A stretch of 20,000 nt of DNA from an uncultured virus (IMG/VR IMGVR_UViG_3300025132_000002) (taxonomy: Duplodnaviria > Heunggongvirae > Uroviricota > Caudoviricetes): the IMG/VR virus record IMGVR_UViG_3300025132_000002; one strand, given 5' to 3'. A model generated the notes under the pieces. It saw only the letters and a program-made list of their open reading frames with translations, did not search any database and was not told where the DNA came from. The first letter of the stretch is position 1. Each line of letters starts with the position of its first letter. The position numbers were made by a program, and so were the translations under genes. This document shows, piece by piece, positions 4,844-17,108 of the stretch.

Positions 4844-5107
4844 ATGTCCAAGCCGATTAAACCCATCGAAGTCGCATCCGGTCTTATCAAGTCCGCTTTT
4901 ACCACTGGCGCTGCTGCCGATACCAACATTCCTATTACCGGCATTAAGAAGGGCGATCACCTGATCATAGTTCTTGAATCTGCTGTCACGTCTGCCCTTC
5001 TGACTGACCGCACCGCTCAGACAACGATTACAGCAGATGGGGTTATTCAGATTAGCGTCACTACCGCTAGCGACAAGATCCTTGTCTTCTGGCAGCCGCT
5101 TCGATGA
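4844..5107 (+). CDS. Small beta-rich protein (87 aa), possible head fibre/decoration protein
   Basis: Strong RBS TAGGAG; T/I/A-rich (ITGIKKGDHLIIV...ITADGVIQI). Function inferred. Confidence 0.55.
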   Translation: MSKPIKPIEVASGLIKSAFTTGAAADTNIPITGIKKGDHLIIVLESAVTSALLTDRTAQTTITADGVIQISVTTASDKILVFWQPLR

Positions 5108-5604
5108 ATATAGCTGAAATCCTCAATGAGTGGCCAGAAGCGTCTAAGTTACTGGCCGTCGTTGGCACCCCATATTGTTGGGGTGCGGGCGATCTAGTCA
5201 ATGTTAAAGACATTAAGCCTTCTGTGTCCTCTACCTTTCCAAAGGGTAGTAAGGGTGGAAAAGGGCTAGATTGCTCAGGATTAGCTCAGTGGGCGTTGTG
5301 GATAATGGGCATTGTGAAGGCTGACGCCTGGAATGACCTGTCTGCCGATGCTTTGGCTTACGCCTGTGATGGCGTTAGTGACGCTGACGCTGCTGTTCCC
5401 GGCGATCTGTACTTTTACAAAAACGCCGGAGCGTCTAAGATTCATCATGTAACAGTCGCATTAGGTGGGGGTTTATGCCTTCATGCTAGTGGCGGCAGTA
5501 GTACGAATGGTGATGACCCTACCCGTTCTGTTCAAGTAGTCCATTACCGCAGAGCAGGCACGTTCTTAACTTGCGGTAGGCTGAAGGATAAGTTTCGCCA
5601 ATGA
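5104..5604 (+). CDS. NlpC/P60 family cysteine peptidase (probable endolysin)
   Basis: Motifs GTPYCWG, GLDCSGL (catalytic Cys), PGDLYFY, HVTVALG (His) and LHAS (third triad residue); no signal peptide; ATGA overlaps at both ends. Confidence 0.92.
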   Translation: MNIAEILNEWPEASKLLAVVGTPYCWGAGDLVNVKDIKPSVSSTFPKGSKGGKGLDCSGLAQWALWIMGIVKADAWNDLSADALAYACDGVSDADAAVPGDLYFYKNAGASKIHHVTVALGGGLCLHASGGSSTNGDDPTRSVQVVHYRRAGTFLTCGRLKDKFRQ

Positions 5605-6707: not shown

Positions 6708-7238
6708 TCAGCTTTTGTGCAGCTTGCGTCTAAGCCATATTAGCCAGCCCAGTACAAACGTATACAGCTTTTTGTCTGCGGACAAACAATAGGCTAGCAT
6801 ATCATCTTCTTCTTCCTCTAGATATTGTAAGGCTTTATCCCAGCCCACAGTAAGCTTCGTGCCGTATTTAACTTCTCCCATGAGTAGCCGCCCCACCACA
6901 GCCGATTTGATGGATGGCGGCAAGGGAAAACTGCGTAACGATTGCTTGACAGTAAGTCCTTCATGGTAACAGCCGGGATCTTCGGGCCGCTTCAGGTTTG
7001 CGGCCTTCTCTAAGCAACACAGCAAGTCATAAAGATTAGTATACGCACCCCTAACTTCATGGTAGCTGTGACCTTCAGGGCTATCATACGTCGCTTCAGC
7101 GTTATCCCATAGATAGTTAGTAGTGCCGGACACTTCAATCTTCCAGCCAGAATACTGGTACTCTTTCCAGATTATCTGCTCTTTCAGATTTAAGCCTTCG
7201 TTAACTTCGTAAGGTTCAAGCCAGTGTGACTTAGGCAT
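6708..7238 (-). CDS. Protein with C-terminal MazG-like/all-alpha NTP pyrophosphatase-type motif (176 aa)
   Basis: RLLMGEVKYGTKL...ALQYLEEEEDDMLAY matches an R-x3-G-x2-KYG-x2-L...EE-x2-D-x3-Y pattern; ATG at 7238 with GAGG RBS overlaps the upstream stop. Confidence 0.5.
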   Translation of the reverse strand: MPKSHWLEPYEVNEGLNLKEQIIWKEYQYSGWKIEVSGTTNYLWDNAEATYDSPEGHSYHEVRGAYTNLYDLLCCLEKAANLKRPEDPGCYHEGLTVKQSLRSFPLPPSIKSAVVGRLLMGEVKYGTKLTVGWDKALQYLEEEEDDMLAYCLSADKKLYTFVLGWLIWLRRKLHKS

Positions 7239-9402
7239 CTTCACCCTCTATGAGATGCAATCTCTCTTCGGCGTCTTCAGCAGAAATCATATGCTTCCAG
7301 ATACGGCGCATTTTAGCCAATGGAATGTTATGATTGATTGGGTAGCCCAGGTGATTGGTAAGGTTGTCGGACAGCTTAATCTTCAGCATACGATTATCTA
7401 CAGCCGCTACAACAATGTGCCGATCGTAGGCGTTTGCCCCAGTGTCTTTTTTGATCGTGAAGGAAACCCCCTTTACAGTTGTCGCTGTGATACTGCTGGC
7501 GCTGACACGACTAACTTCACAGTCAAACACTTGGTCAACAAACTCTCGGCCATTACGAATGGCGTGTTTAATCTGAACGTGCGCTCCTTCAGGAATACCC
7601 ATCACAACACTTCTAAACAATGACGAAGCATAATCTTCGGGTCTCGGCGCCCACTCGATACTGTTGATAGCGGTAGAAAATAGCTTCTGTGCCTCCATCT
7701 TCGTATGGTGGGTAAGCTTCTCTACATCAACAATCTCTACGTTCTGGTTAAGCTTGGACCCTCTAATCTTAGCTGTGGTCTGCGCAATGACTTCACCCTT
7801 GTAGTTAGTCCAAGCATTCGCACAAGCCTCGAAAAGTTCAACTCCCCACCCCACGTCATCGAGAAACACGGTAGGAGGAGATGGGAACATGGAGCCCGCA
7901 GCAAGTGCCATAGCCATAACGATCGTTCTAAGTTCAGATCCAGAAGGCGCTAAGTGCAGCTTGCCGTTTCGGAGAAAGCCTACCTCTCGCCGTTCAAGGT
8001 TAATATGCAGCACTCCCCCTTTTAGGTGTTGTGGGGACGGCATAAAGAACCGAGTCTTCTCTAAGAAGTCATCGAAGCGGCTATCTACCAGTTCAGCCTT
8101 CTTCAGCTTGAACACCGTTAGGCTGGCTTTGATCTTCTCCAAGCTGTCTTTTGCCTTGTGCAGCTTCTCTTGGCGGCTCTGTTCCTGCTTGTATCGAAGC
8201 TTTTGCAGGTTGATACGAGAGATAACCGTCTGAGCCTGGCTGATCTCTACCTGACACTTCTCTACTGAATACTCGGGCTTAACGTCTACCTTGACATGAG
8301 AAGACATCACTCTCAGCTCAACTTGCCGCTTCTCTTCCTCTTTCATCACAGCTTCGATTTCTTGGTTGATCTGCCGCAGTAGCTCAGTGTCTACAGCGTT
8401 TTGGATCTTCCAGATCGCACCCTGAAAAGACAAAGCTTTATTCTTGAAGTAAGACTCACTGCTGTCGTTGCCTACAGCCTTTTTAATGTTTTCCGAAGAT
8501 TCGCAAATAGGGCATATGGGCAGCTCATGCTTAGCCGCAAAAGCACAAAGTATTTCTGCCGCACGGTAAGCCTCTAATCTGTCTTCGTCTAAACCAGGCA
8601 AATCCGCCCGTTGTTGTTGTAGCTCAGACAGCTTCTCTCTGAGATGGTGAATGTCGCTTTTGATAACGTCAATCGCGTGACTATCTACCTTCTTGGAGTT
8701 TTCCCAAGTCTGCCTTGCCACAAGCTTACCTTGCCAAAAGGACAAATCCTCTTCAGCCGCGTCTAACTGCATGGGATTAGGCGGAACAACACTCGAATCG
8801 GCCTGACTTAGCAGGGTGTTAATCTGATTCTTTGCGTGCTTCTCGTTGTCTTTTAGGTGCTTGATCGTAGAATTTAAAGCTTCGATAGGGGTAGCAGTCT
8901 TCTTTCTGAGGTAACTATTAAGTAATGTGAGGTTGTCCCCTAACAGCCCGCTTCTGATATCGGGGGCCTTTACGTTTCTCACAACAAATCGGACTAATTC
9001 ATCGACCATCTTTTCTGGGGTGCGCGCCAAAATCTGCTTAATGTCGGGCGCAATGTTTGCTCCCTGCGGCATTTTGTACCCAGACTGCCAGTTACGGGGG
9101 ATAGATCCTGACTTGCTCTCTACAATACTAACAGAAGACGTACCTTTGCTATGCTCCAAAGTAACGTGGATATCTTCTCCGGCATTAAGACGGTCTCGGA
9201 TTAAGCGCCCGTCAGTTACATGCTTGCCTAAAATGTCGATGAAACAGCTTTTGGTAAGGGCCGCTTCAATAGAAGATACGACTGAGCCCTTGCCCGCCCC
9301 ACTGCTACCCACAAATACCTTAACGTTTTTAGTATCGTCAAAGTCTATGGTAGTGGGCTGCGTTACAGCCATCATGTTTGTTGTAATAGTTTTAAGCTTC
9401 AC
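7231..9402 (-). CDS. Rad50/SbcC (SMC-like) ABC ATPase with zinc hook and C-terminal extension
   Basis: Likely GTG start at 9402 with GAGGA RBS (MKLKTITTN); Walker A GSSGAGKGS; coiled coils flanking CPIC (8503-8514); signature PSGSE; Walker B VFLDD. Confidence 0.8.
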   Translation of the reverse strand: MKLKTITTNMMAVTQPTTIDFDDTKNVKVFVGSSGAGKGSVVSSIEAALTKSCFIDILGKHVTDGRLIRDRLNAGEDIHVTLEHSKGTSSVSIVESKSGSIPRNWQSGYKMPQGANIAPDIKQILARTPEKMVDELVRFVVRNVKAPDIRSGLLGDNLTLLNSYLRKKTATPIEALNSTIKHLKDNEKHAKNQINTLLSQADSSVVPPNPMQLDAAEEDLSFWQGKLVARQTWENSKKVDSHAIDVIKSDIHHLREKLSELQQQRADLPGLDEDRLEAYRAAEILCAFAAKHELPICPICESSENIKKAVGNDSSESYFKNKALSFQGAIWKIQNAVDTELLRQINQEIEAVMKEEEKRQVELRVMSSHVKVDVKPEYSVEKCQVEISQAQTVISRINLQKLRYKQEQSRQEKLHKAKDSLEKIKASLTVFKLKKAELVDSRFDDFLEKTRFFMPSPQHLKGGVLHINLERREVGFLRNGKLHLAPSGSELRTIVMAMALAAGSMFPSPPTVFLDDVGWGVELFEACANAWTNYKGEVIAQTTAKIRGSKLNQNVEIVDVEKLTHHTKMEAQKLFSTAINSIEWAPRPEDYASSLFRSVVMGIPEGAHVQIKHAIRNGREFVDQVFDCEVSRVSASSITATTVKGVSFTIKKDTGANAYDRHIVVAAVDNRMLKIKLSDNLTNHLGYPINHNIPLAKMRRIWKHMISAEDAEERLHLIEGEDA

Positions 9403-9412
9403 TAGTTGTTCC

Positions 9413-9781
9413 TCACCGGGGGAAACCTGCCCCACGCTTTAATATTTTGTGACTGGTTATTTTTGCGCTGAAAGAGTTGGTTAGTTCTTTGATTGCTTTG
9501 TTGTGATCAAATGGCTTACAGCTAAATATGTCTACAAAGCAGTAACCTTTTTCTTGAAAGGTGTGAATAGAGCAATGACTTTCAGCTAACACTACTACTC
9601 CTGTAACCCCGCAATCTTCAGGTACCTTGCCTGAATACCTAAACACATTCGGCTCAGATATTCGGGTCATGCCAATATTTTCGGGAAGCTCCATGAGTAT
9701 ACTATGTATTAAGTCTATATCACCAAGCGCTTCGTTGTCGCACATACTTAAATCTAGTATTAGATGAGGCCCAAAAAACAT
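9413..9781 (-). CDS. speD: S-adenosylmethionine decarboxylase proenzyme family (pyruvoyl-dependent, short SpeD/SpeH type), 122 aa
   Basis: GPHLILD, GVTGVVVLAESHCSIHTF (E-S autocleavage site), VDIFSCK, C-terminal RG; probable start ATG 9781, 1 nt after the upstream stop. Confidence 0.93.
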   Translation of the reverse strand: MFFGPHLILDLSMCDNEALGDIDLIHSILMELPENIGMTRISEPNVFRYSGKVPEDCGVTGVVVLAESHCSIHTFQEKGYCFVDIFSCKPFDHNKAIKELTNSFSAKITSHKILKRGAGFPR

Positions 9782-9782
9782 A

Positions 9783-10319
9783 CTATTCCCAGTAAAGCTT
9801 GTATACAGTAAGAGTGCGGGGACGACCACGAGCAGTCATGTATGTCTCTTGCTCTTGTTCAGCCCTGATAATGGTTAGCGTCTTGTCGAAGTCAGGGCCG
9901 ATGACCTTAGCTACCCGGCCAGTCTCCAGGGCGGCGGACACAATTTGACCTGTGACTTTGCCCACCCGAATAGCGCCCGCAGAATGGTCTGTGAGGTTGA
10001 TGCCGCTGGCGTGGGGTAGATCCCTGCGCGGGTCGTCAGGATCCATTGTACGGTCCAAAATGGCCCCTTCAGCCGGCACCACGAACTCGGTGAAGCGGTA
10101 GGCGTCATACCCCTCTGGGCGACCCGTCACCCAATCCACATACATACTAAAGTTACGGCCACATTCAGACTGGGTAAAAGCATCTGAAGCCTTGATAAGA
10201 TCACATTGTCCGGCCCAGCTTTCTTTCAAGTGCTGGAAATAAGGGTCTTGGCAGTCTGCGTACTTCTGCCCCATTGGGTAAGAGCTAAGATAAAGTCTAT
10301 TAGGTGTGCTGGGTTCCAT
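9783..10319 (-). CDS. Hypothetical protein (178 aa); faint resemblance to nucleoside deoxyribosyltransferase-like fold
   Basis: ATG 10319 has GGAG RBS (alternative start 10331); RLYLSSYPMG and GKVTGQIVSAALETGRVAKVI loosely echo NDT/DUF4406-type motifs. Confidence 0.6.
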   Translation of the reverse strand: MEPSTPNRLYLSSYPMGQKYADCQDPYFQHLKESWAGQCDLIKASDAFTQSECGRNFSMYVDWVTGRPEGYDAYRFTEFVVPAEGAILDRTMDPDDPRRDLPHASGINLTDHSAGAIRVGKVTGQIVSAALETGRVAKVIGPDFDKTLTIIRAEQEQETYMTARGRPRTLTVYKLYWE

Positions 10320-10352
10320 TGTTTTCTCCATGAGATTAGGGCCTCTGCACCC

Positions 10353-10401: not shown

Positions 10402-13386
10402 TCAAGTAACGTCTTTCAAGGTGCGCCCAGTTGAAGCTTCGCCCGATATTGGGAACTCCCACCCCGGTATGTTCAAGGTGAAAGCGTCTTCAAATATTTC
10501 TTCCATCTCTCGTATTTCTTTTGGTAAGTCTGAGCGTTTGTAGTATTTAACTTTCTCTGGTTTATACACATCTTGGGGTTTCCAGTATTTGTGCATACCA
10601 GCAGGTAACGCCCACTCCACTGCAATAGAATCATGGCACTGGTATATGATACCTGTTCCTGGCCCTGTCTGGTCTCGGGGAAAGCGCTTTTCAATACGGC
10701 CTTCTATCATAGCCATAACTTCCGGCTCAGTAGCCAAAACTCCAAAGTTAACTGCCTTGTTAACGTCGTCGCCCATGTTACCAGACTTTCTTTCGAACAG
10801 ATAAGACTGTACGTAGCCATTGTCTCTATAGAAGTCTTGCTCTTTTTGCCAAGCCATTTCCCATTCGGGCTGACCCCTAAGCCAAGCTTCGTGCAGCTTC
10901 ACAACTTCTAGCGGCTTCATGTGCATGTAGGGCATAGACTTCTGTATGATCTCAAATATGTTAAGGTCTATTGTACCTTCGGCTAACCCCTTGTGCCAAT
11001 CAGTCGGAAGGTCAAACTCCGTAGCTGTCAGCACGCGCCAAACGGTTGCGGGAGACGCACCGTATACGGAAGCATAGATAAATATCTTAATGGTATTCCG
11101 CATAGCATCAGCGGTACTGCCGGGGTCAGGCTTTTTCTCCAACCCATTATACCCCGTAGCCCCAGTAAACCTTTTACCGAATGTAGTATACGCATTGTAG
11201 TTATGCGGGTCATACCCTTTTCGGATCGCCTCGCACAGCGCGGGTATCTTCCACACATTCGCTATAATAAACAGGTGGGCCTGATTCACATCTGCCCCAT
11301 AGAATATTCTACCGGGAGGCGCTGCGAATACCTTTTTCAGCGGGCCTTGACCTTTCTTGTTGCCGATGTTCTGTACGTTGGGGCCTCTAGAAGAGTATCT
11401 TCCGACGTTAGTTAAATGCGCGGAGAAAGACGAATGTACTCTGTTGTCTGGGTATAAGAACGATTTAGTGAAGCCTTTGCTTCTACCGTTCTTACCGATT
11501 ATAGGTTTTTCGGGGGCCAAGGGTCTAAGCGTGGTGCCTACAATCTTACCCCTAATACGGCGGAAAACCCTAACAAGCTGCATAATCTCAGCTTGTTTCT
11601 GGTTCAATACACCAGAAGCAATGTAGTGCCTGTGTACAACATCGGATGTAGACAAGTCACCATTGGTAGTCAGAAAGTCTTTCTTGCTATATATGGGTTG
11701 GCCGTCATCGTCTTTAATGCCGGACTCCCAAAGTGGAGGTAAATCCCACTTATCGAAGTAAAGCCATCTTAGGTGACGGGTAGAGTTAGGGTTCATCTCG
11801 TCACCAGATATTTCTTCCTGGCTTAGATGAATGCCCTCCAGCATAAGTAACTGTTGTAGCCTGTTCCAGATGTAGGTATACTCCTTTACCCCGGCAGACT
11901 CTAAAGCGCCCCGCTTATGCTGGTCAATCCACAAACCTACCTTGGTCATCCTAACGCCACGATCTTGCCGCTCGTGGTCAATATCACAAAGAGATGGTAC
12001 CCCAGGATGAGGCCACCAGTCTAAGCCTAGATACTCTTTTCTAATCGGTAGAAAGTATCCGGTGGCCGCTGCCAATCTACGCAGCTCGGGCCAAATCTTC
12101 AGGTTAACTTGTGTATCGGTTCCGTTGTACTTTAACAGCTCGTCATCATTAGTCGACCCGGTTGCAATAGACTCTTCTTTATCGTCACTATCCCATTCCC
12201 CTACATCACAGTAGGTTCTACCAGTAGGTTTAAGGCCCTTTGGAATAGAAGGGTTAGCAGCACGAGCAGGTAAGATTGTGTCAATAAGAGGTGTAGGCGT
12301 TATACCAAAGTTGGCTTCTGCGTTTAGTCTATCGAACTGCCCCGCGTTATGCCCTATCTTTAGGATGTTGGGGTCTGTCAATAACTTTCTGCACAAATCT
12401 GCTATTTGCTTTTCTTCTTGCTCGGAATAAAAACGGGTAACACCATCAGTCGAAAGTAATGATACGCAAGCAAGCTCGATAGGACCATTCTCAATACCGT
12501 TTTCCCACCTAGCAAAAGCAATCGTACGTGTAGGTATCTGCGAGGGCCTGAGCCCTTGTCTATGCTTTGGGGTTTCGACATCGTAACACACAATGGGTTT
12601 TGTGTACTGGTGAGAGTTTCTATCAGAATGAAACGTAGGTCTTATGTCTTCAATCCATTGATCGAACTCCGCAGGTGTTGGCCGCCATAGTATGGATGAG
12701 GGTTCTTCCCAGTTTAGGCTATCTCCAAAAAAGCGCAACCCTTTTCTAAGATCGTGCATCCATCTATCAAAATAAGCCGGAGCCCTGTCTACATAGCCGG
12801 GGCTATACGTAGGCAGAACTTTCCGATGGGCGCCTGGGTAGTCTTCGCTAACCTTCTCCCAGTTTACGTCAATCTTCCAAGGACTGCCGCGAACCTTTTT
12901 TATGCCGCGCCGAATACCCGTTAATGCACGGGTTGATATCTTACCCAGCGTAATAATATTATCGTAATCAGCCGCAGCTTTTAATAACCTAGGGCGGCAG
13001 CATGTTTCAGGGTGCGGAAGAGAATCAAATCCCTCTGCGTTTCGCCTTTTGTTAAGGCGCTTTAGCTTATCTTCCATACGACGATAGGCCCCGTTAATAG
13101 GGCCTGGAGGACGACACGCCAAAACAGAAGTAACTGAGAAGCTATCTCTGCGTTCTTTTAGTTCCCACAACGCTCTAAGCCAAGGGCCGCCCACATCAGA
13201 CGAAGAGAAGTAATGCCCAGTACGGGCATCTTCTTTTGCAGGTGCGTCCAACACAACAATAGCATTAGCATTTTTGTGGTGTTCTGTTTTTAGGGGGCGC
13301 CAATCAAAGGCGAAAGCCCTTAGATCACCAGAAGGCCCGAGGGGGCATTTATCACAGTCGGCTCCATCACACCTTGGATCGTACAT
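10402..13386 (-). CDS. polA: Family A DNA polymerase with N-terminal family-4 UDG-like (Fe-S) domain and 3'-5' exonuclease
   Basis: UDG-like CDKCPL, LDAPAKED, ACRPP, ITLG, RG, PTYSP; Exo I YDVET, Exo II HNAGQFD, Exo III YNGTD; GRYSSRGPNVQNI; motif A ADVNQAHL; motif B RNTIKIFIYASVYG; motif C CHDS. Confidence 0.93.
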   Translation of the reverse strand: MYDPRCDGADCDKCPLGPSGDLRAFAFDWRPLKTEHHKNANAIVVLDAPAKEDARTGHYFSSSDVGGPWLRALWELKERRDSFSVTSVLACRPPGPINGAYRRMEDKLKRLNKRRNAEGFDSLPHPETCCRPRLLKAAADYDNIITLGKISTRALTGIRRGIKKVRGSPWKIDVNWEKVSEDYPGAHRKVLPTYSPGYVDRAPAYFDRWMHDLRKGLRFFGDSLNWEEPSSILWRPTPAEFDQWIEDIRPTFHSDRNSHQYTKPIVCYDVETPKHRQGLRPSQIPTRTIAFARWENGIENGPIELACVSLLSTDGVTRFYSEQEEKQIADLCRKLLTDPNILKIGHNAGQFDRLNAEANFGITPTPLIDTILPARAANPSIPKGLKPTGRTYCDVGEWDSDDKEESIATGSTNDDELLKYNGTDTQVNLKIWPELRRLAAATGYFLPIRKEYLGLDWWPHPGVPSLCDIDHERQDRGVRMTKVGLWIDQHKRGALESAGVKEYTYIWNRLQQLLMLEGIHLSQEEISGDEMNPNSTRHLRWLYFDKWDLPPLWESGIKDDDGQPIYSKKDFLTTNGDLSTSDVVHRHYIASGVLNQKQAEIMQLVRVFRRIRGKIVGTTLRPLAPEKPIIGKNGRSKGFTKSFLYPDNRVHSSFSAHLTNVGRYSSRGPNVQNIGNKKGQGPLKKVFAAPPGRIFYGADVNQAHLFIIANVWKIPALCEAIRKGYDPHNYNAYTTFGKRFTGATGYNGLEKKPDPGSTADAMRNTIKIFIYASVYGASPATVWRVLTATEFDLPTDWHKGLAEGTIDLNIFEIIQKSMPYMHMKPLEVVKLHEAWLRGQPEWEMAWQKEQDFYRDNGYVQSYLFERKSGNMGDDVNKAVNFGVLATEPEVMAMIEGRIEKRFPRDQTGPGTGIIYQCHDSIAVEWALPAGMHKYWKPQDVYKPEKVKYYKRSDLPKEIREMEEIFEDAFTLNIPGWEFPISGEASTGRTLKDVT

Positions 13387-16085: not shown

Positions 16086-17108
16086 TCAGAAAGGTAAATC
16101 TTCACCATGATGACAATGCTTGAAGTAACGACACGACCAACCCTCTTTGTTCTTATAGGTTGTAATGCAGTTACCACCAACTTCAAGGGCGCCCGTCATG
16201 GGCCACCCTTCTCGACCTATGTAGCCCGCCGCCTCTGCGGAGTCAAGGCGTGCGATGGTCTCGGCAGCGTTTAAAATAAGGTAAGGAAGGGCATTTGCAC
16301 GATTTTGAGAATAGCGCAAAGGAGTTACCTTAACTTTACCTGGGGACGAAGGGTTTACGCTAATACCATGAATGTCCACAGACTTCACGGCTCCCCGCCA
16401 TTTTTGTAGGGACAAGGACCAGATTGCAGTAAAGCCCATGTCAACGTTATACTTGTTAGGATCTGAGTATATGTAGTTCTGATGCTTATGGTCTATCACT
16501 GTTACGAAACCCGCATTGTCGGCTGACACTAAGTCAAGTCTGCGGGAAAGATAAATAGGCTTTTTGTGAAGCTTAGAGCCTTCCATATCCAATAGTGTGA
16601 GCTTTATTTTTTCCCCGTTACTCGAAGGCAGCTCGGTTACTTCTTCATCTAACTCATCCCAGGCGTCTTCTCGGACTAACCAGTAGCCAAACTTGCCGCG
16701 CTTCTTACCCAGTACCCCTACCAGCTCACACTCAACCATTATCTGACGGTCAATGATCGGCGGGCTTAGTTTATAGTTCTGGTAAGCTGTGATAATCTTT
16801 TCCGCAAAAGGCTCGTGATCGGGCTCTTTCTCACAATGATCCTTCACAGCATCTTCAGGTGATAGAAACAAATCTGTGTTATCATACATTTCGCCGTTAA
16901 CTAACACGCTACCGTAGTTTTCAATGGCTTCTATTGTATGGTGGTGCGCTTGAATATCGTGGCCCAGGGTGCCTGTTAATAGCGGCGCTATTGGAGGCAT
17001 GTTCTTTTTATCTCTATCCAGACGTGCCATGTACGCACATTGCAGCACAGGAGAATAGTAAGACCACCCTCTACGAGATTTGCCGGCGTCAATGCGCATC
17101 TTGTTCAT
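16086..17108 (-). CDS. Cas4/AddB-like PD-(D/E)XK exonuclease
   Basis: N-terminal Cys (LQCAY), GTLGH, VE, RLDLV, VIDHK and three C-terminal cysteines (NC...SCRYFKHC), consistent with an Fe-S staple. Confidence 0.8.
   Translation of the reverse strand: MNKMRIDAGKSRRGWSYYSPVLQCAYMARLDRDKKNMPPIAPLLTGTLGHDIQAHHHTIEAIENYGSVLVNGEMYDNTDLFLSPEDAVKDHCEKEPDHEPFAEKIITAYQNYKLSPPIIDRQIMVECELVGVLGKKRGKFGYWLVREDAWDELDEEVTELPSSNGEKIKLTLLDMEGSKLHKKPIYLSRRLDLVSADNAGFVTVIDHKHQNYIYSDPNKYNVDMGFTAIWSLSLQKWRGAVKSVDIHGISVNPSSPGKVKVTPLRYSQNRANALPYLILNAAETIARLDSAEAAGYIGREGWPMTGALEVGGNCITTYKNKEGWSCRYFKHCHHGEDLPF

Follow-up and report, generated by a model that had tools for sequence, protein, structure and literature searches.

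A histidine in place of the steric-gate glutamate in the family A DNA polymerases of a clade of uncultured phages

Results

The window analysed here, a stretch of 20,000 nucleotides from an uncultured virus, carries on its minus strand a gene for a protein (P0001) in which a UDG-like domain is joined to an exonuclease and a family A DNA polymerase. The features on which the analysis draws are the following.

10402..13386, minus strand: P0001 gene, 994-aa UDG-like / 3'-5' exonuclease / family A DNA polymerase (open reading frame list and translation)
12748..13272, minus strand: N-terminal family-4 UDG-like domain, residues 39-213, without the canonical motif-B His, Ser195 standing there (PF03167)
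12115..12582, minus strand: Exo I D269/E271, Exo II N347/D352 and Exo III Y420/D424 (alignment A2)
11290..11292, minus strand: GAT codon of Asp699, the motif A catalytic aspartate, Klenow D705 (alignment to Klenow)
11275..11277, minus strand: CAC codon of His704, at the steric-gate position, Klenow E710 (alignment to Klenow)
11059..11100, minus strand: motif B (O-helix), R763, K767, Y771 (Pol I F762 column), Y775 (Y766 column) and G776 (alignment)
10735..10737, minus strand: TTG codon of Leu884, in the column of Pol I Gln849, KlenTaq Gln754 (MAFFT alignment)
10627..10635, minus strand: motif C, H918-D919-S920, for Pol I H881-D882-E883 with Ser for Glu (alignment)
About 570 bp downstream of the polymerase gene, with one 182-aa open reading frame between: S-adenosylmethionine decarboxylase gene (PF02675, E 7e-29)

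The P0001 reading frame is unbroken across its 994 codons, and its polymerase (PF00476, 69.8 bits against a cut-off of 34.3), exonuclease (PF01612, 28 against 23.6) and UDG-like domains (PF03167, 36.2 against 24.3, E 7.7e-9) all exceed their Pfam cut-offs; the PHROG match is phrog_17, 'DNA polymerase' (E 3.8e-60). A 5' nuclease domain is missing, and the UDG-like domain is an addition relative to Klenow, Taq and Bst Pol I. Aligned with the family-4 UDG chains of T. maritima and T. thermophilus, this domain places LDAPAKED over GEGPGEEED, the GEGPG of family-4 UDGs being LDAPA in P0001, and at motif B PTYSPGY over PTFHPSY. These pairwise alignments are weak (E 0.075-0.095), the profile search giving E 2.4e-14. 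The motif B consensus in alignment A2, LPTxxPxF, likewise lacks the His.

The steric-gate glutamate is regarded as a fixed feature of family A, and polymerase engineers target it to obtain enzymes that accept RNA or XNA building blocks. An earlier note on this DNA had placed a His at that position in P0001, and the placement holds. Klenow is the best solved-structure match of P0001 (E 1e-11 with the single sequence, 1e-22 with a 20-sequence profile); phmmer runs query residues 648-740 along chain positions 330-423 without a gap through motif A, with 'gadvnqahlfi' over 'sadysqielri' of Klenow, and the profile gives the identical register. Adding 323 to the chain index restores Klenow numbering and yields R663 = R668, D699 = D705 and H704 = E710, the last of these equivalences following from the gapless alignment between the anchors D, Q and L of motif A (G-A-D-V-N-Q-A-H-L-F in P0001). 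The coordinates previously given for codons 699 and 704 are exact, and CAC is, as claimed, two substitutions away from GAA or GAG. Five residues past the motif A Asp, where family A has its gate Glu, P0001 thus has His704; because all other features of the family are present, we keep it in family A as a variant. The gate Glu (position A2 of Czernecki et al., PMC10201439) is near-invariant in family A.

The other catalytic residues listed in the earlier note are present, and the absence of decay claimed there is borne out. With aligned proteins divided by gate residue into His-type and Glu-type, the motif A Asp column holds Asp in 101/101 His-type, 71/71 Glu-type and 17/17 Pol I-like rows; both catalytic aspartates, D699 and D919, are invariant over these three sets, and R763, K767 and Y775 are each invariant in 99/99 His-type rows. 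The residues of Exo I (DxE), Exo II (Nx4D) and Exo III (Yx3D) are all present and invariant across alignment A2, the profile alignment setting ayDvEtdG over AFDTETDS of Klenow at Exo I. The Y771 column is Tyr in 88, Leu in 7 and Phe in 4 of the 99 His-type rows, and neither this Tyr/Phe 'gate assistant' column nor Y775, which we take to be the counterpart of the Tyr pairing with the gate residue in Pol I, shifts between His-type and Glu-type proteins. We also considered the R841 column as a His-specific change and rejected it: it holds Asn or Gln in both types.

Motif C reads H-D-S and not H-D-E, a detail (S920) absent from the earlier note. With the E710 and E883 columns both changed, the active site of P0001 is without two of the four Pol I carboxylates, so its catalytic or metal-binding behaviour could differ. 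H-D-S is also the motif C of T7 RNA polymerase, a resemblance that would suit the reading of altered sugar selectivity put forward in the earlier note. On that reading the His would open the sugar pocket or alter its shape, and rNTPs or 2'-modified nucleotides would be accepted; the phage would then tolerate or exploit ribonucleotides in its genome. None of our computations supports that reading, and we regard it as unlikely. At the E883 column His-type proteins have Ser in 69, Ala in 11 and Gln in 7 of 93 rows, and Glu-type proteins have Ser in 35 and Ala in 28 of 70, which makes the change family-wide and not tied to His; as H-D-S and H-D-A are equally common in the Glu-type sisters, and H-D-S is present in phage SP-10, this motif is unrelated to the His. 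The unchanged Y771 and Y775 columns and the retained proofreading motifs likewise speak against an open gate.

His at the gate is conserved well beyond the window. The gate is His in 31/31 sequences (P0001 and 30 independent homologs from several sources, 40-94% identity), so that the close homologs, which might have carried Glu, include none that does. His-type proteins make up 101 of the 190 that could be aligned, the clade comprising about 100 clusters at 50% identity, and a small residue stands at the gate in 0/101 of them; this census of the gate and Q849 columns covered the best 150 of 315 representatives with E up to 1e-30. A scan of viral contigs returned no matches with a single-protein query and 80 related loci with an alignment-based one. 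Of these, 73 could be parsed, 62 encoding the His by CAC and 11 by CAT; as they were fetched by a pattern containing QAHL, codon turnover alone is informative in them. In an outgroup-rooted tree of 170 family members and 21 outgroups (Presley, at 48% coverage, was left out), the His-type proteins are monophyletic (99/99 tips, P0001 among them, support 0.977) and nested within a paraphyletic Glu-type grade, the outgroups all having Glu or Asp at the gate. D-x-x-Q-x-H therefore defines a clade, a point that the earlier note had put as a question. As judged from the tree, the His gate is of single derived origin in the UDG-PolA family, and its invariance together with the use of both codons indicates that it is under purifying selection. 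P0166 and phage Mel-JY34 have a natural Asp at the gate, which makes a GAR to GAY to CAY route plausible.

Errors of sequencing or assembly, or a gene in decay, have practically no probability left as explanations of the His; nothing was found in their favour, and they were considered only because the gate residue is described as near-invariant in family A. Two nucleotide substitutions separate the His from Glu, it recurs in 30/30 homologs and, with two codons, in 73/73 of the parsed loci (fetched by the QAHL pattern), and the uninterrupted 994-codon frame keeps every catalytic and exonuclease residue; homolog conservation and codon usage refute both versions of this explanation.

A second column, not mentioned in the earlier note, changes together with the gate. 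In the MAFFT alignment with Pol I sequences, where NKAVNFGVLATE lies over ERAAINAPIQGTAAD, L884 falls in the Q849 column, which is Leu in 93 and Ile in 6 of 99 His-type rows, with Gln in none. The same column is Gln in 67/70 Glu-type rows of the first alignment, in the 24-tip sister clade and in 20/20 outgroups. Two Glu-type Ile calls of the first alignment are gone in the second, where only P0083 (Ser) departs from Gln, and we treat them as alignment noise. Neither a His+Gln nor a Glu+Leu intermediate occurs in the UDG-PolA family rows and tree examined, and the pair that defines the clade in P0001 is H704 with L884.

In KlenTaq ternary complexes (PMC7155079), a water bridges Asn750, Gln754 and Glu615 to the minor-groove atom (O2/N3) of the nucleotide coming in, and the 3'-OH is bonded to the Glu615 backbone, a contact that would survive a side-chain swap because it is to the backbone. 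Since Glu, Gln and Asn there share one minor-groove water, the His704 and Leu884 changes are probably connected, and the coupled L884 change points at the minor-groove water network, not at the sugar alone. The Asn of this network is kept, as N880, in 99/99 His-type rows. A review (PMC4215692, citing Patel and Loeb 2000a) states that random mutagenesis of Taq tolerated only Asp at E615, as would fit a gate change that depends on a second, partner substitution. Being a single evolutionary event, the coupling is confounded with phylogeny.

Each of the five related viral records (completeness 90% or more in 3) has a single PolA and matches to neither PolB nor Pol III alpha (5/5), and the His-gate PolA, as the only DNA polymerase found, must therefore make their DNA. 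A PurZ-type adenylosuccinate synthetase (PF00709) was found in 0/5, TGT/DpdA (PF01702) in 0/5 and a ribonucleotide reductase (RNR, PF02867) above cut-off in 0/5, with one 14.9-bit match; a ThyA-type enzyme (PF00303) is present in 2/5, and the 100% complete relative G005 has ThyX (PF02511). The AdoMet decarboxylase gene, considered as a possible feature of the clade, was rejected as such, with homologs in 0/80 related loci.

These gene contents bear on a reading in which the His/Leu pair tunes minor-groove checking for an unusual base, such as a modified purine or pyrimidine of the phage genome, or for a changed fidelity regime, and the sugar is not concerned. Both changed residues do sit in the water network that, in KlenTaq, reads the minor-groove face of the incoming base; the UDG-fused PolAs of SPO1, SP-10, SP-15 and YerA41 serve T-modified phages (PMC10201439, PMC13697223); and the window holds an S-adenosylmethionine decarboxylase gene near the polymerase gene. 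Against it, no modification pathway travels with the clade (PurZ, TGT/DpdA and ThyA as counted above), the complete relative has an ordinary ThyX, the decarboxylase is confined to the window among the loci compared, and the motif-B His is missing from the UDG-like domain, whereas the SPO1- and SP15-like groups, which modify T, have an active UDG (PMC13697223). We consider this reading quite unlikely.

Discussion

Among the known systems close to P0001 is the N4-like UDG-PolA (cluster #17 of Czernecki et al. 2023, PMC10201439, exemplified by Acinetobacter phage Presley gp37). These enzymes share the order UDG-like / 3'-5' exo / PolA, a length of about 800-1000 aa, the role of replicase in a phage of about 70 kb, and unconserved catalytic UDG residues, as in P0001 (Ser195; LDAPA); they have Phe at motif B position B3, where P0001 has Tyr771. 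Presley, which matches P0001 at 24% identity over 42% of the query, also lacks the motif C Glu (IHDA), but its gate is Glu (GADFNSLED). The Glu-type sisters from the same uncultured UDG-PolA family (such as P0102, P0146 and P0148) show 32-35% identity over the full length and the same architecture; they have Asn at the R841 column and Ser or Ala at the E883 column as in P0001, and they retain, unlike P0001, the gate Glu and the Gln at the Q849 column. They represent the grade that gave rise to the His clade.

The SPO1-like and SP15-like UDG-PolAs (SP-10; YerA41, phiLo; Missoury et al. 2026, PMC13697223) are also fusions of UDG, exo and PolA. That paper describes conserved and active UDG residues in phages with T-modified DNA, whereas P0001 is without the motif-B His, and gives the SP15-like enzymes two large inserts (Insert 1, Insert 2) and a C-terminal domain of about 80 aa. 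SP-10 resembles P0001 in motif C (VHDS) and differs from it at the gate, which is Glu (ADYSQLELRI). The YerA41 enzyme has 1306 aa, P0001 being about 300 aa shorter, and the only PDB relative of such a size, 9qlh_A (1306 aa), matches P0001 at E 4e-4. Klenow, Taq and Bst Pol I belong to the same fold family and share motifs A, B and C with P0001, in which E710 is replaced by His, Q849 by Leu, R841 by Asn and E883 by Ser.

A His gate in family A has one further instance among the sequences compared. The divPolA1 of Flavobacterium phage immuto (gp001; Yutin et al., PMC11348598) has His at the gate column (EMDFDGYHLRL), in a weak alignment of 13.6 bits. It is a 441-aa protein described as thumb-truncated, with inactivated exonuclease and accessory to another replicase (PMC11348598), unlike the 994-aa P0001 with its intact exonuclease motifs, and it differs further in having Gln at the Q849 column and no UDG domain. 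On this alignment the His gate arose a second time, independently, in the divPolA1 of a cultured phage. Its His with Gln, one sequence in that same weak alignment, weakens the idea that the His-Leu coupling is obligatory.

Within the clade of P0001 itself, searches of cultured phages returned no such enzyme. A tblastn of P0001, P0074 and P0113 against 50,697 phage records gave nothing over about 27% identity, and of seven named phage records that we opened, Presley, SP-10, Rctr197k, Serbin, Kuura and Manatee ctUh1700 have a Glu gate and Mel-JY34 has Asp; no His-gate UDG-PolA of this clade occurs among the cultured-phage records searched. The scan of a genome collection returned only 2 loci, both within one MAG, and so offers no host lead. 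No natural His gate in family A is described in the literature text that we searched, although the figures of Czernecki 2023 and Missoury 2026 may show the residue, and no published report of E710H, E615H, E480H, E658H, E2335H or E895H; nor did we find a paper that describes the His-gate UDG-PolA clade.

Does such a gate still exclude ribonucleotides? His is bulkier than Glu, and no His-type protein has a small gate residue. His need not always be a tight gate: replacing the gate Tyr of PrimPol by His reportedly increases the use of rNTPs. An open gate would be in keeping with the loss of the canonical Glu in every member of the clade, with a small Ala at the column beside the gate (Pol I I709) in P0001 and in 57/101 His-type rows, and with the missing RNR match above cut-off in 3/3 near-complete relatives, for which dNTP supply may be tight. 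Variants of the equivalent Taq I614 are recurrent in directed-evolution screens, but the known change that opens the Taq gate is to Gly (E615G) (review, PMC4215692). The viruses are, moreover, DNA phages from DNA metagenomes in which the His-gate PolA is the sole polymerase found. A proven precedent for exclusion by His comes from PolD, whose steric gate is H931: the H931A change abolishes a discrimination of about 2,300-fold, and the His excludes 2'-OH, 2'-NH2, 2'-N3 and 2'-OCH3 (PMC7708050) and also helps to position the dNTP. In Pol III alpha, H760 is the modelled gate (PMC8485763). In both enzymes an imidazole is shown or proposed to clash with the 2'-OH of an rNTP. Because the folds and the elements bearing the His are unrelated to those of P0001, the likeness is functional and not structural, and implies no homology. 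On these grounds, we judge His704 more likely to be a substitute gate than an open one.

The explanation that we favour, and hold to be moderately probable, is that P0001 is the replicative polymerase of an uncultured tailed phage and belongs to a large, derived His/Leu clade of UDG-fused family A enzymes in which His substitutes as the gate, dNTP selection is kept and the sensor has been rebuilt. In one ancestral step the gate Glu (Klenow E710) would have become His and the minor-groove Gln (Klenow Q849) Leu or Ile. The imidazole ring of His704 would lie under C2' of the incoming sugar and stand in the way of a 2'-OH, in much the manner of the His gates in family D and family C polymerases, and this proposed block would account for dNTP selection and faithful copying by an enzyme with intact proofreading. 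The His/Leu pair probably rebuilds the minor-groove sensor, with the polar contact passing to His and the space being filled by Leu. The retained sugar discrimination and the manner of this rebuilding are the parts that we infer. At the level of sequence no compensating acidic residue was found, no column in 640-930 being conserved as Asp or Glu in the His-type proteins only. It is improbable, by comparison with this favoured explanation, that the His704/Leu884 pair alters what the pocket accepts (ribonucleotides, 2'-modified sugars or altered minor-groove bases) or acts as a pH-titratable gate.

Taken as a whole, a large clade of phages has long been running on His instead of Glu, and another residue of the water-mediated sensor to which the gate belongs is replaced as well. 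Among the cultured-phage records checked, a cultured His-gate PolA is available only in the unrelated divPolA1 of immuto. If discrimination is changed, these enzymes would be a natural start for polymerase engineering and would raise the question of what the DNA of these phages contains; if it is specifically the acceptance of the pocket that is altered, a whole clade of uncultured phages of about 70-100 kb would be copying its genomes with a substrate choice that is relaxed or can be switched, and the His/Leu pair would be a ready-made scaffold for modified nucleic acids. If discrimination is retained, the family A pocket would have two workable solutions, and family A would join families C and D as the third to have come independently to a His gate.

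Genomic setting of the polymerase gene

The window is phage DNA. Its minus strand carries a replication module made up of a DUF927 primase-helicase, a helicase, a conserved 340-aa protein, an AAA_24 protein and the polymerase, P0001; structural and lysis genes lie on the plus strand.

The polymerase gene and its domains (Pfam matches above cut-offs)
10402-13386 (-), polymerase gene P0001, 994 aa, matching three Pfam families
12748-13272 (-), UDG superfamily domain PF03167, residues 39-213 of P0001
within P0001 (-), 3'-5' exonuclease PF01612
within P0001 (-), family A polymerase PF00476

Downstream of P0001 comes an AdoMet decarboxylase-like gene (9413-9829, -; PF02675, E 7e-29; phrog_3125), and between the two a 182-aa ORF without family match (9783-10331) overlaps the start of the decarboxylase gene. 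The 734-aa (7231-9435, -) and 340-aa (16086-17108, -) proteins match nothing in Pfam, PHROGs or NCBIfam, and the latter ends in a Cys-rich stretch. On the plus strand, a 166-aa NlpC/P60-family protein (5104-5604; Pfam E 6.4e-10), also matched by tail-protein PHROGs, probably serves the virion or lysis module as a cell-wall hydrolase. A 5'-open ORF fragment (1-2571, +, 856 aa) has no Pfam, PHROG or NCBIfam match.

Histidine occupies the steric-gate position

An earlier note placed His704 at the steric gate and described the remaining catalytic and exonuclease residues as intact, and both statements hold for P0001. On the minus strand, codon 699 is GAT (11290-11292) and codon 704 is CAC (11275-11277). 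A phmmer comparison with Klenow chains sets 'gadvnqahlfi' over 'sadysqielri' without gaps and, with 323 added to the chain numbering, pairs R663 with R668, D699 with D705 and H704 with E710. A 20-sequence profile gives the same register (E 1e-22) and brings Exo I (ayDvEtdG over AFDTETDS) and motif C (QcHDs over QVHDE) into line as well. In P0001 motif C reads H-D-S, a detail absent from the earlier note.

With residues 500-994 as query, a word-indexed search gave 47 proteins, 30 of them close relatives (E at most 3e-88, 40-94% identity) and 17 distant Pol I-like proteins (E at least 6e-8). In an alignment joining the query and its 30 relatives to 5 of the Pol I-like proteins, all 31 clade rows read Q-A-H-L, and Glu took the place of His in all 5 Pol I-like rows. 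Close homologs thus have His and not Glu, and D-x-x-Q-x-H, raised in the earlier note as a possible clade marker, does define a clade. Searching 1.84 billion representatives exhaustively with phmmer gave 4,526 proteins at E ≤ 0.001, and 315 of them reached E ≤ 1e-30; the best 150 were listed. We aligned 194 proteins to an HMM of query region 640-930 and obtained the gate-column residue for 190: His in 101, Glu in 88 (71 of the UDG-PolA family and 17 Pol I-like) and Asp in 1. The family therefore comprises a His type and a Glu type. The retrieval pattern for the 80 related viral loci included the motif itself, so only codon turnover is informative there; the His codon was CAC in 62 and CAT in 11 of the 73 loci parsed by regular expression. 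The histidine at the steric gate is real and clade-defining.

A single origin, coupled to a second substitution

We built a FastTree phylogeny (LG+gamma) from 170 family members with at least 70% coverage and 21 outgroups, rooted on the Pol I-like set; 3 of 24 outgroup candidates (Presley, P0041, P0048) had been removed for coverage below 60%. The UDG-PolA family is monophyletic (support 0.848), and within it the His type is monophyletic (99 of 99 tips, support 0.977) and nested in a paraphyletic Glu-type grade, indicating that His was derived once and never lost in our sample. Midpoint rooting without outgroups gives an equally clean split with one change.

The sharpest contrast between the types is at the Q849 column (query L884), which holds Leu (93) or Ile (6) in the 99 His-type rows, Gln in 67 of 70 Glu-type rows and Gln in all 20 outgroups. 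This equivalence comes from MAFFT, which pairs NKAVNFGVLATE with Pol I ERAAINAPIQGTAAD. In a second alignment P0083 (Ser) is the only Glu-type row departing from Gln, and the 24-tip sister clade has Gln. Neither His+Gln nor Glu+Leu intermediates were seen among the aligned family rows. The R841 (query N876; Asn or Gln) and E883 (query S920; Ser, Ala or Gln) columns hold the same residues in both types, and are thus family-wide changes not tied to His. Lesser His-specific contrasts fall at I708, N710, L717, S868 and G869, and no column in region 640-930 is conserved as acidic in the His type alone, as a compensating residue would be.

In KlenTaq ternary complexes, Asn750, Gln754 and Glu615 make water-mediated contacts with a minor-groove atom of the incoming nucleotide, while the Glu615 backbone bonds the sugar 3'-OH and Arg573 the ring oxygen (PMC7155079). 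These four residues correspond to the Klenow N845, Q849, E710 and R668 columns. P0001 retains N880 and R663, and its gate Glu and Q849-column Gln are replaced together; the shared water contacts may be what links the two substitutions. In random mutagenesis of Taq, only Asp was tolerated at Glu615 (PMC4215692, citing Patel and Loeb 2000a), which fits both a substitution requiring a partner and a codon path from Glu through Asp to His. Asp is a one-step codon intermediate between the two, and is the natural gate residue of P0166 (GADANQIDLRV) and of the Microcystis phage Mel-JY34 DNA polymerase (L091:883-3315; ADLDRADLQV).

Related viral loci and genomes

An alignment-based scan of viral contigs gave 105 relatives, of which the best 80 were kept. 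All 80 loci have the polymerase; 63 have the 340-aa protein and 32 the 734-aa protein, both conserved beside the polymerase, and the helicase and primase are shared by 53 and 33. The AdoMet decarboxylase and the window's structural genes are not shared by any of these best 80 of 105; with homologs in 0 of 80, the decarboxylase appears specific to this phage lineage. Related records span ~65-96 kb. The 100%-complete record G005 (72.7 kb) encodes ThyX, a Sak4-like protein, a primase-helicase and a 2,985-aa giant ORF (L085:2150-11107) whose sole match is a PHROG of unknown function; residues 2168-2800 of the latter, in its C-terminal third, align with the window's 856-aa fragment (E 1e-30, 23% identity). 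Its replication region also holds a 681-aa ORF with weak AAA_23 and SMC_N matches.

In five related records, PurZ-type and TGT pathways were each found in 0 of 5 and RNR above cut-off in 0 of 5, with ThyA-type matches in 2; across these five, no modification pathway tracks the clade. Cultured phages hold nothing close (at most ~27% identity), and the gate residue is Glu in 6 and Asp in 1 of 7 named records examined. The bacterial and archaeal genome collection yielded two loci, both in one MAG.

Many homologs are longer by ~300 aa or more, their alignments breaking at shared conserved sites where the query has no insertion: after query residue 671 (P0006, P0007, P0008, P0010, P0026) or inside motif B (P0050, P0056, P0107, P0125, P0166, P0169, P0174 and others). 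The motif B split (...YAC / ...VFVHN(S/C)...) resembles candidate intein boundaries.

Comparison with described UDG-PolAs and divPolA1

The architecture of P0001 is that of the UDG-PolAs (PMC10201439, PMC13697223). Its UDG-like domain lacks the motif-B His, reading PTYSPGY over the PTFHPSY of family-4 UDGs (Ser195 for His), and has LDAPA where these read GEGPG; judged from sequence, it is probably inactive as a glycosylase. The clade also conserves Cys11, Cys14, Cys91 and Cys129/130, as would suit a putative retained Fe-S site. In lacking the motif-B His the domain is similar to that of N4-like enzymes, described as having an inactive UDG (PMC10201439), but P0001 has Tyr rather than Phe at B3 and matched an N4-like enzyme only weakly. 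P0001 is also unlike the SPO1- and SP15-like groups, where the UDG is active and the genomes are T-modified (PMC13697223). The main text of both papers, as distinct from figures and supplements, does not mention a non-Glu gate.

The accessory polymerase divPolA1 of the cultured Flavobacterium phage immuto likewise has His at the gate column (EMDFDGYHLRL), although its Q849 column, unlike that of the P0001 clade, still holds Gln (one sequence, weakly aligned). By its sequence, divPolA1 is an independent second His-gate family A lineage; the word 'steric' is absent from the paper describing it (PMC11348598).

Does the histidine open the gate?

The earlier note took His704 to alter sugar selectivity, which is possible but a minority reading. 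In family D polymerase, His931 is itself the steric gate, the wild type discriminating ~2,300-fold, H931A not at all, and the wild type excluding large 2' groups (PMC7708050); in Pol III alpha, H760 is a modelled, invariant gate (PMC8485763). His is bulkier than Glu, in contrast to the Taq gate-opening mutation E615G (PMC4215692), and 0 of 101 clade members have a small gate residue. Neither Y775 nor the Y771 'assistant' column differs between His and Glu types, and P0001 retains its proofreading motifs. We thus favor a histidine that probably does not open the gate. The five related viral records (three at least 90% complete) each match PolA once and neither PolB nor Pol III alpha; as the only polymerase found in all five, this enzyme must replicate a DNA genome.
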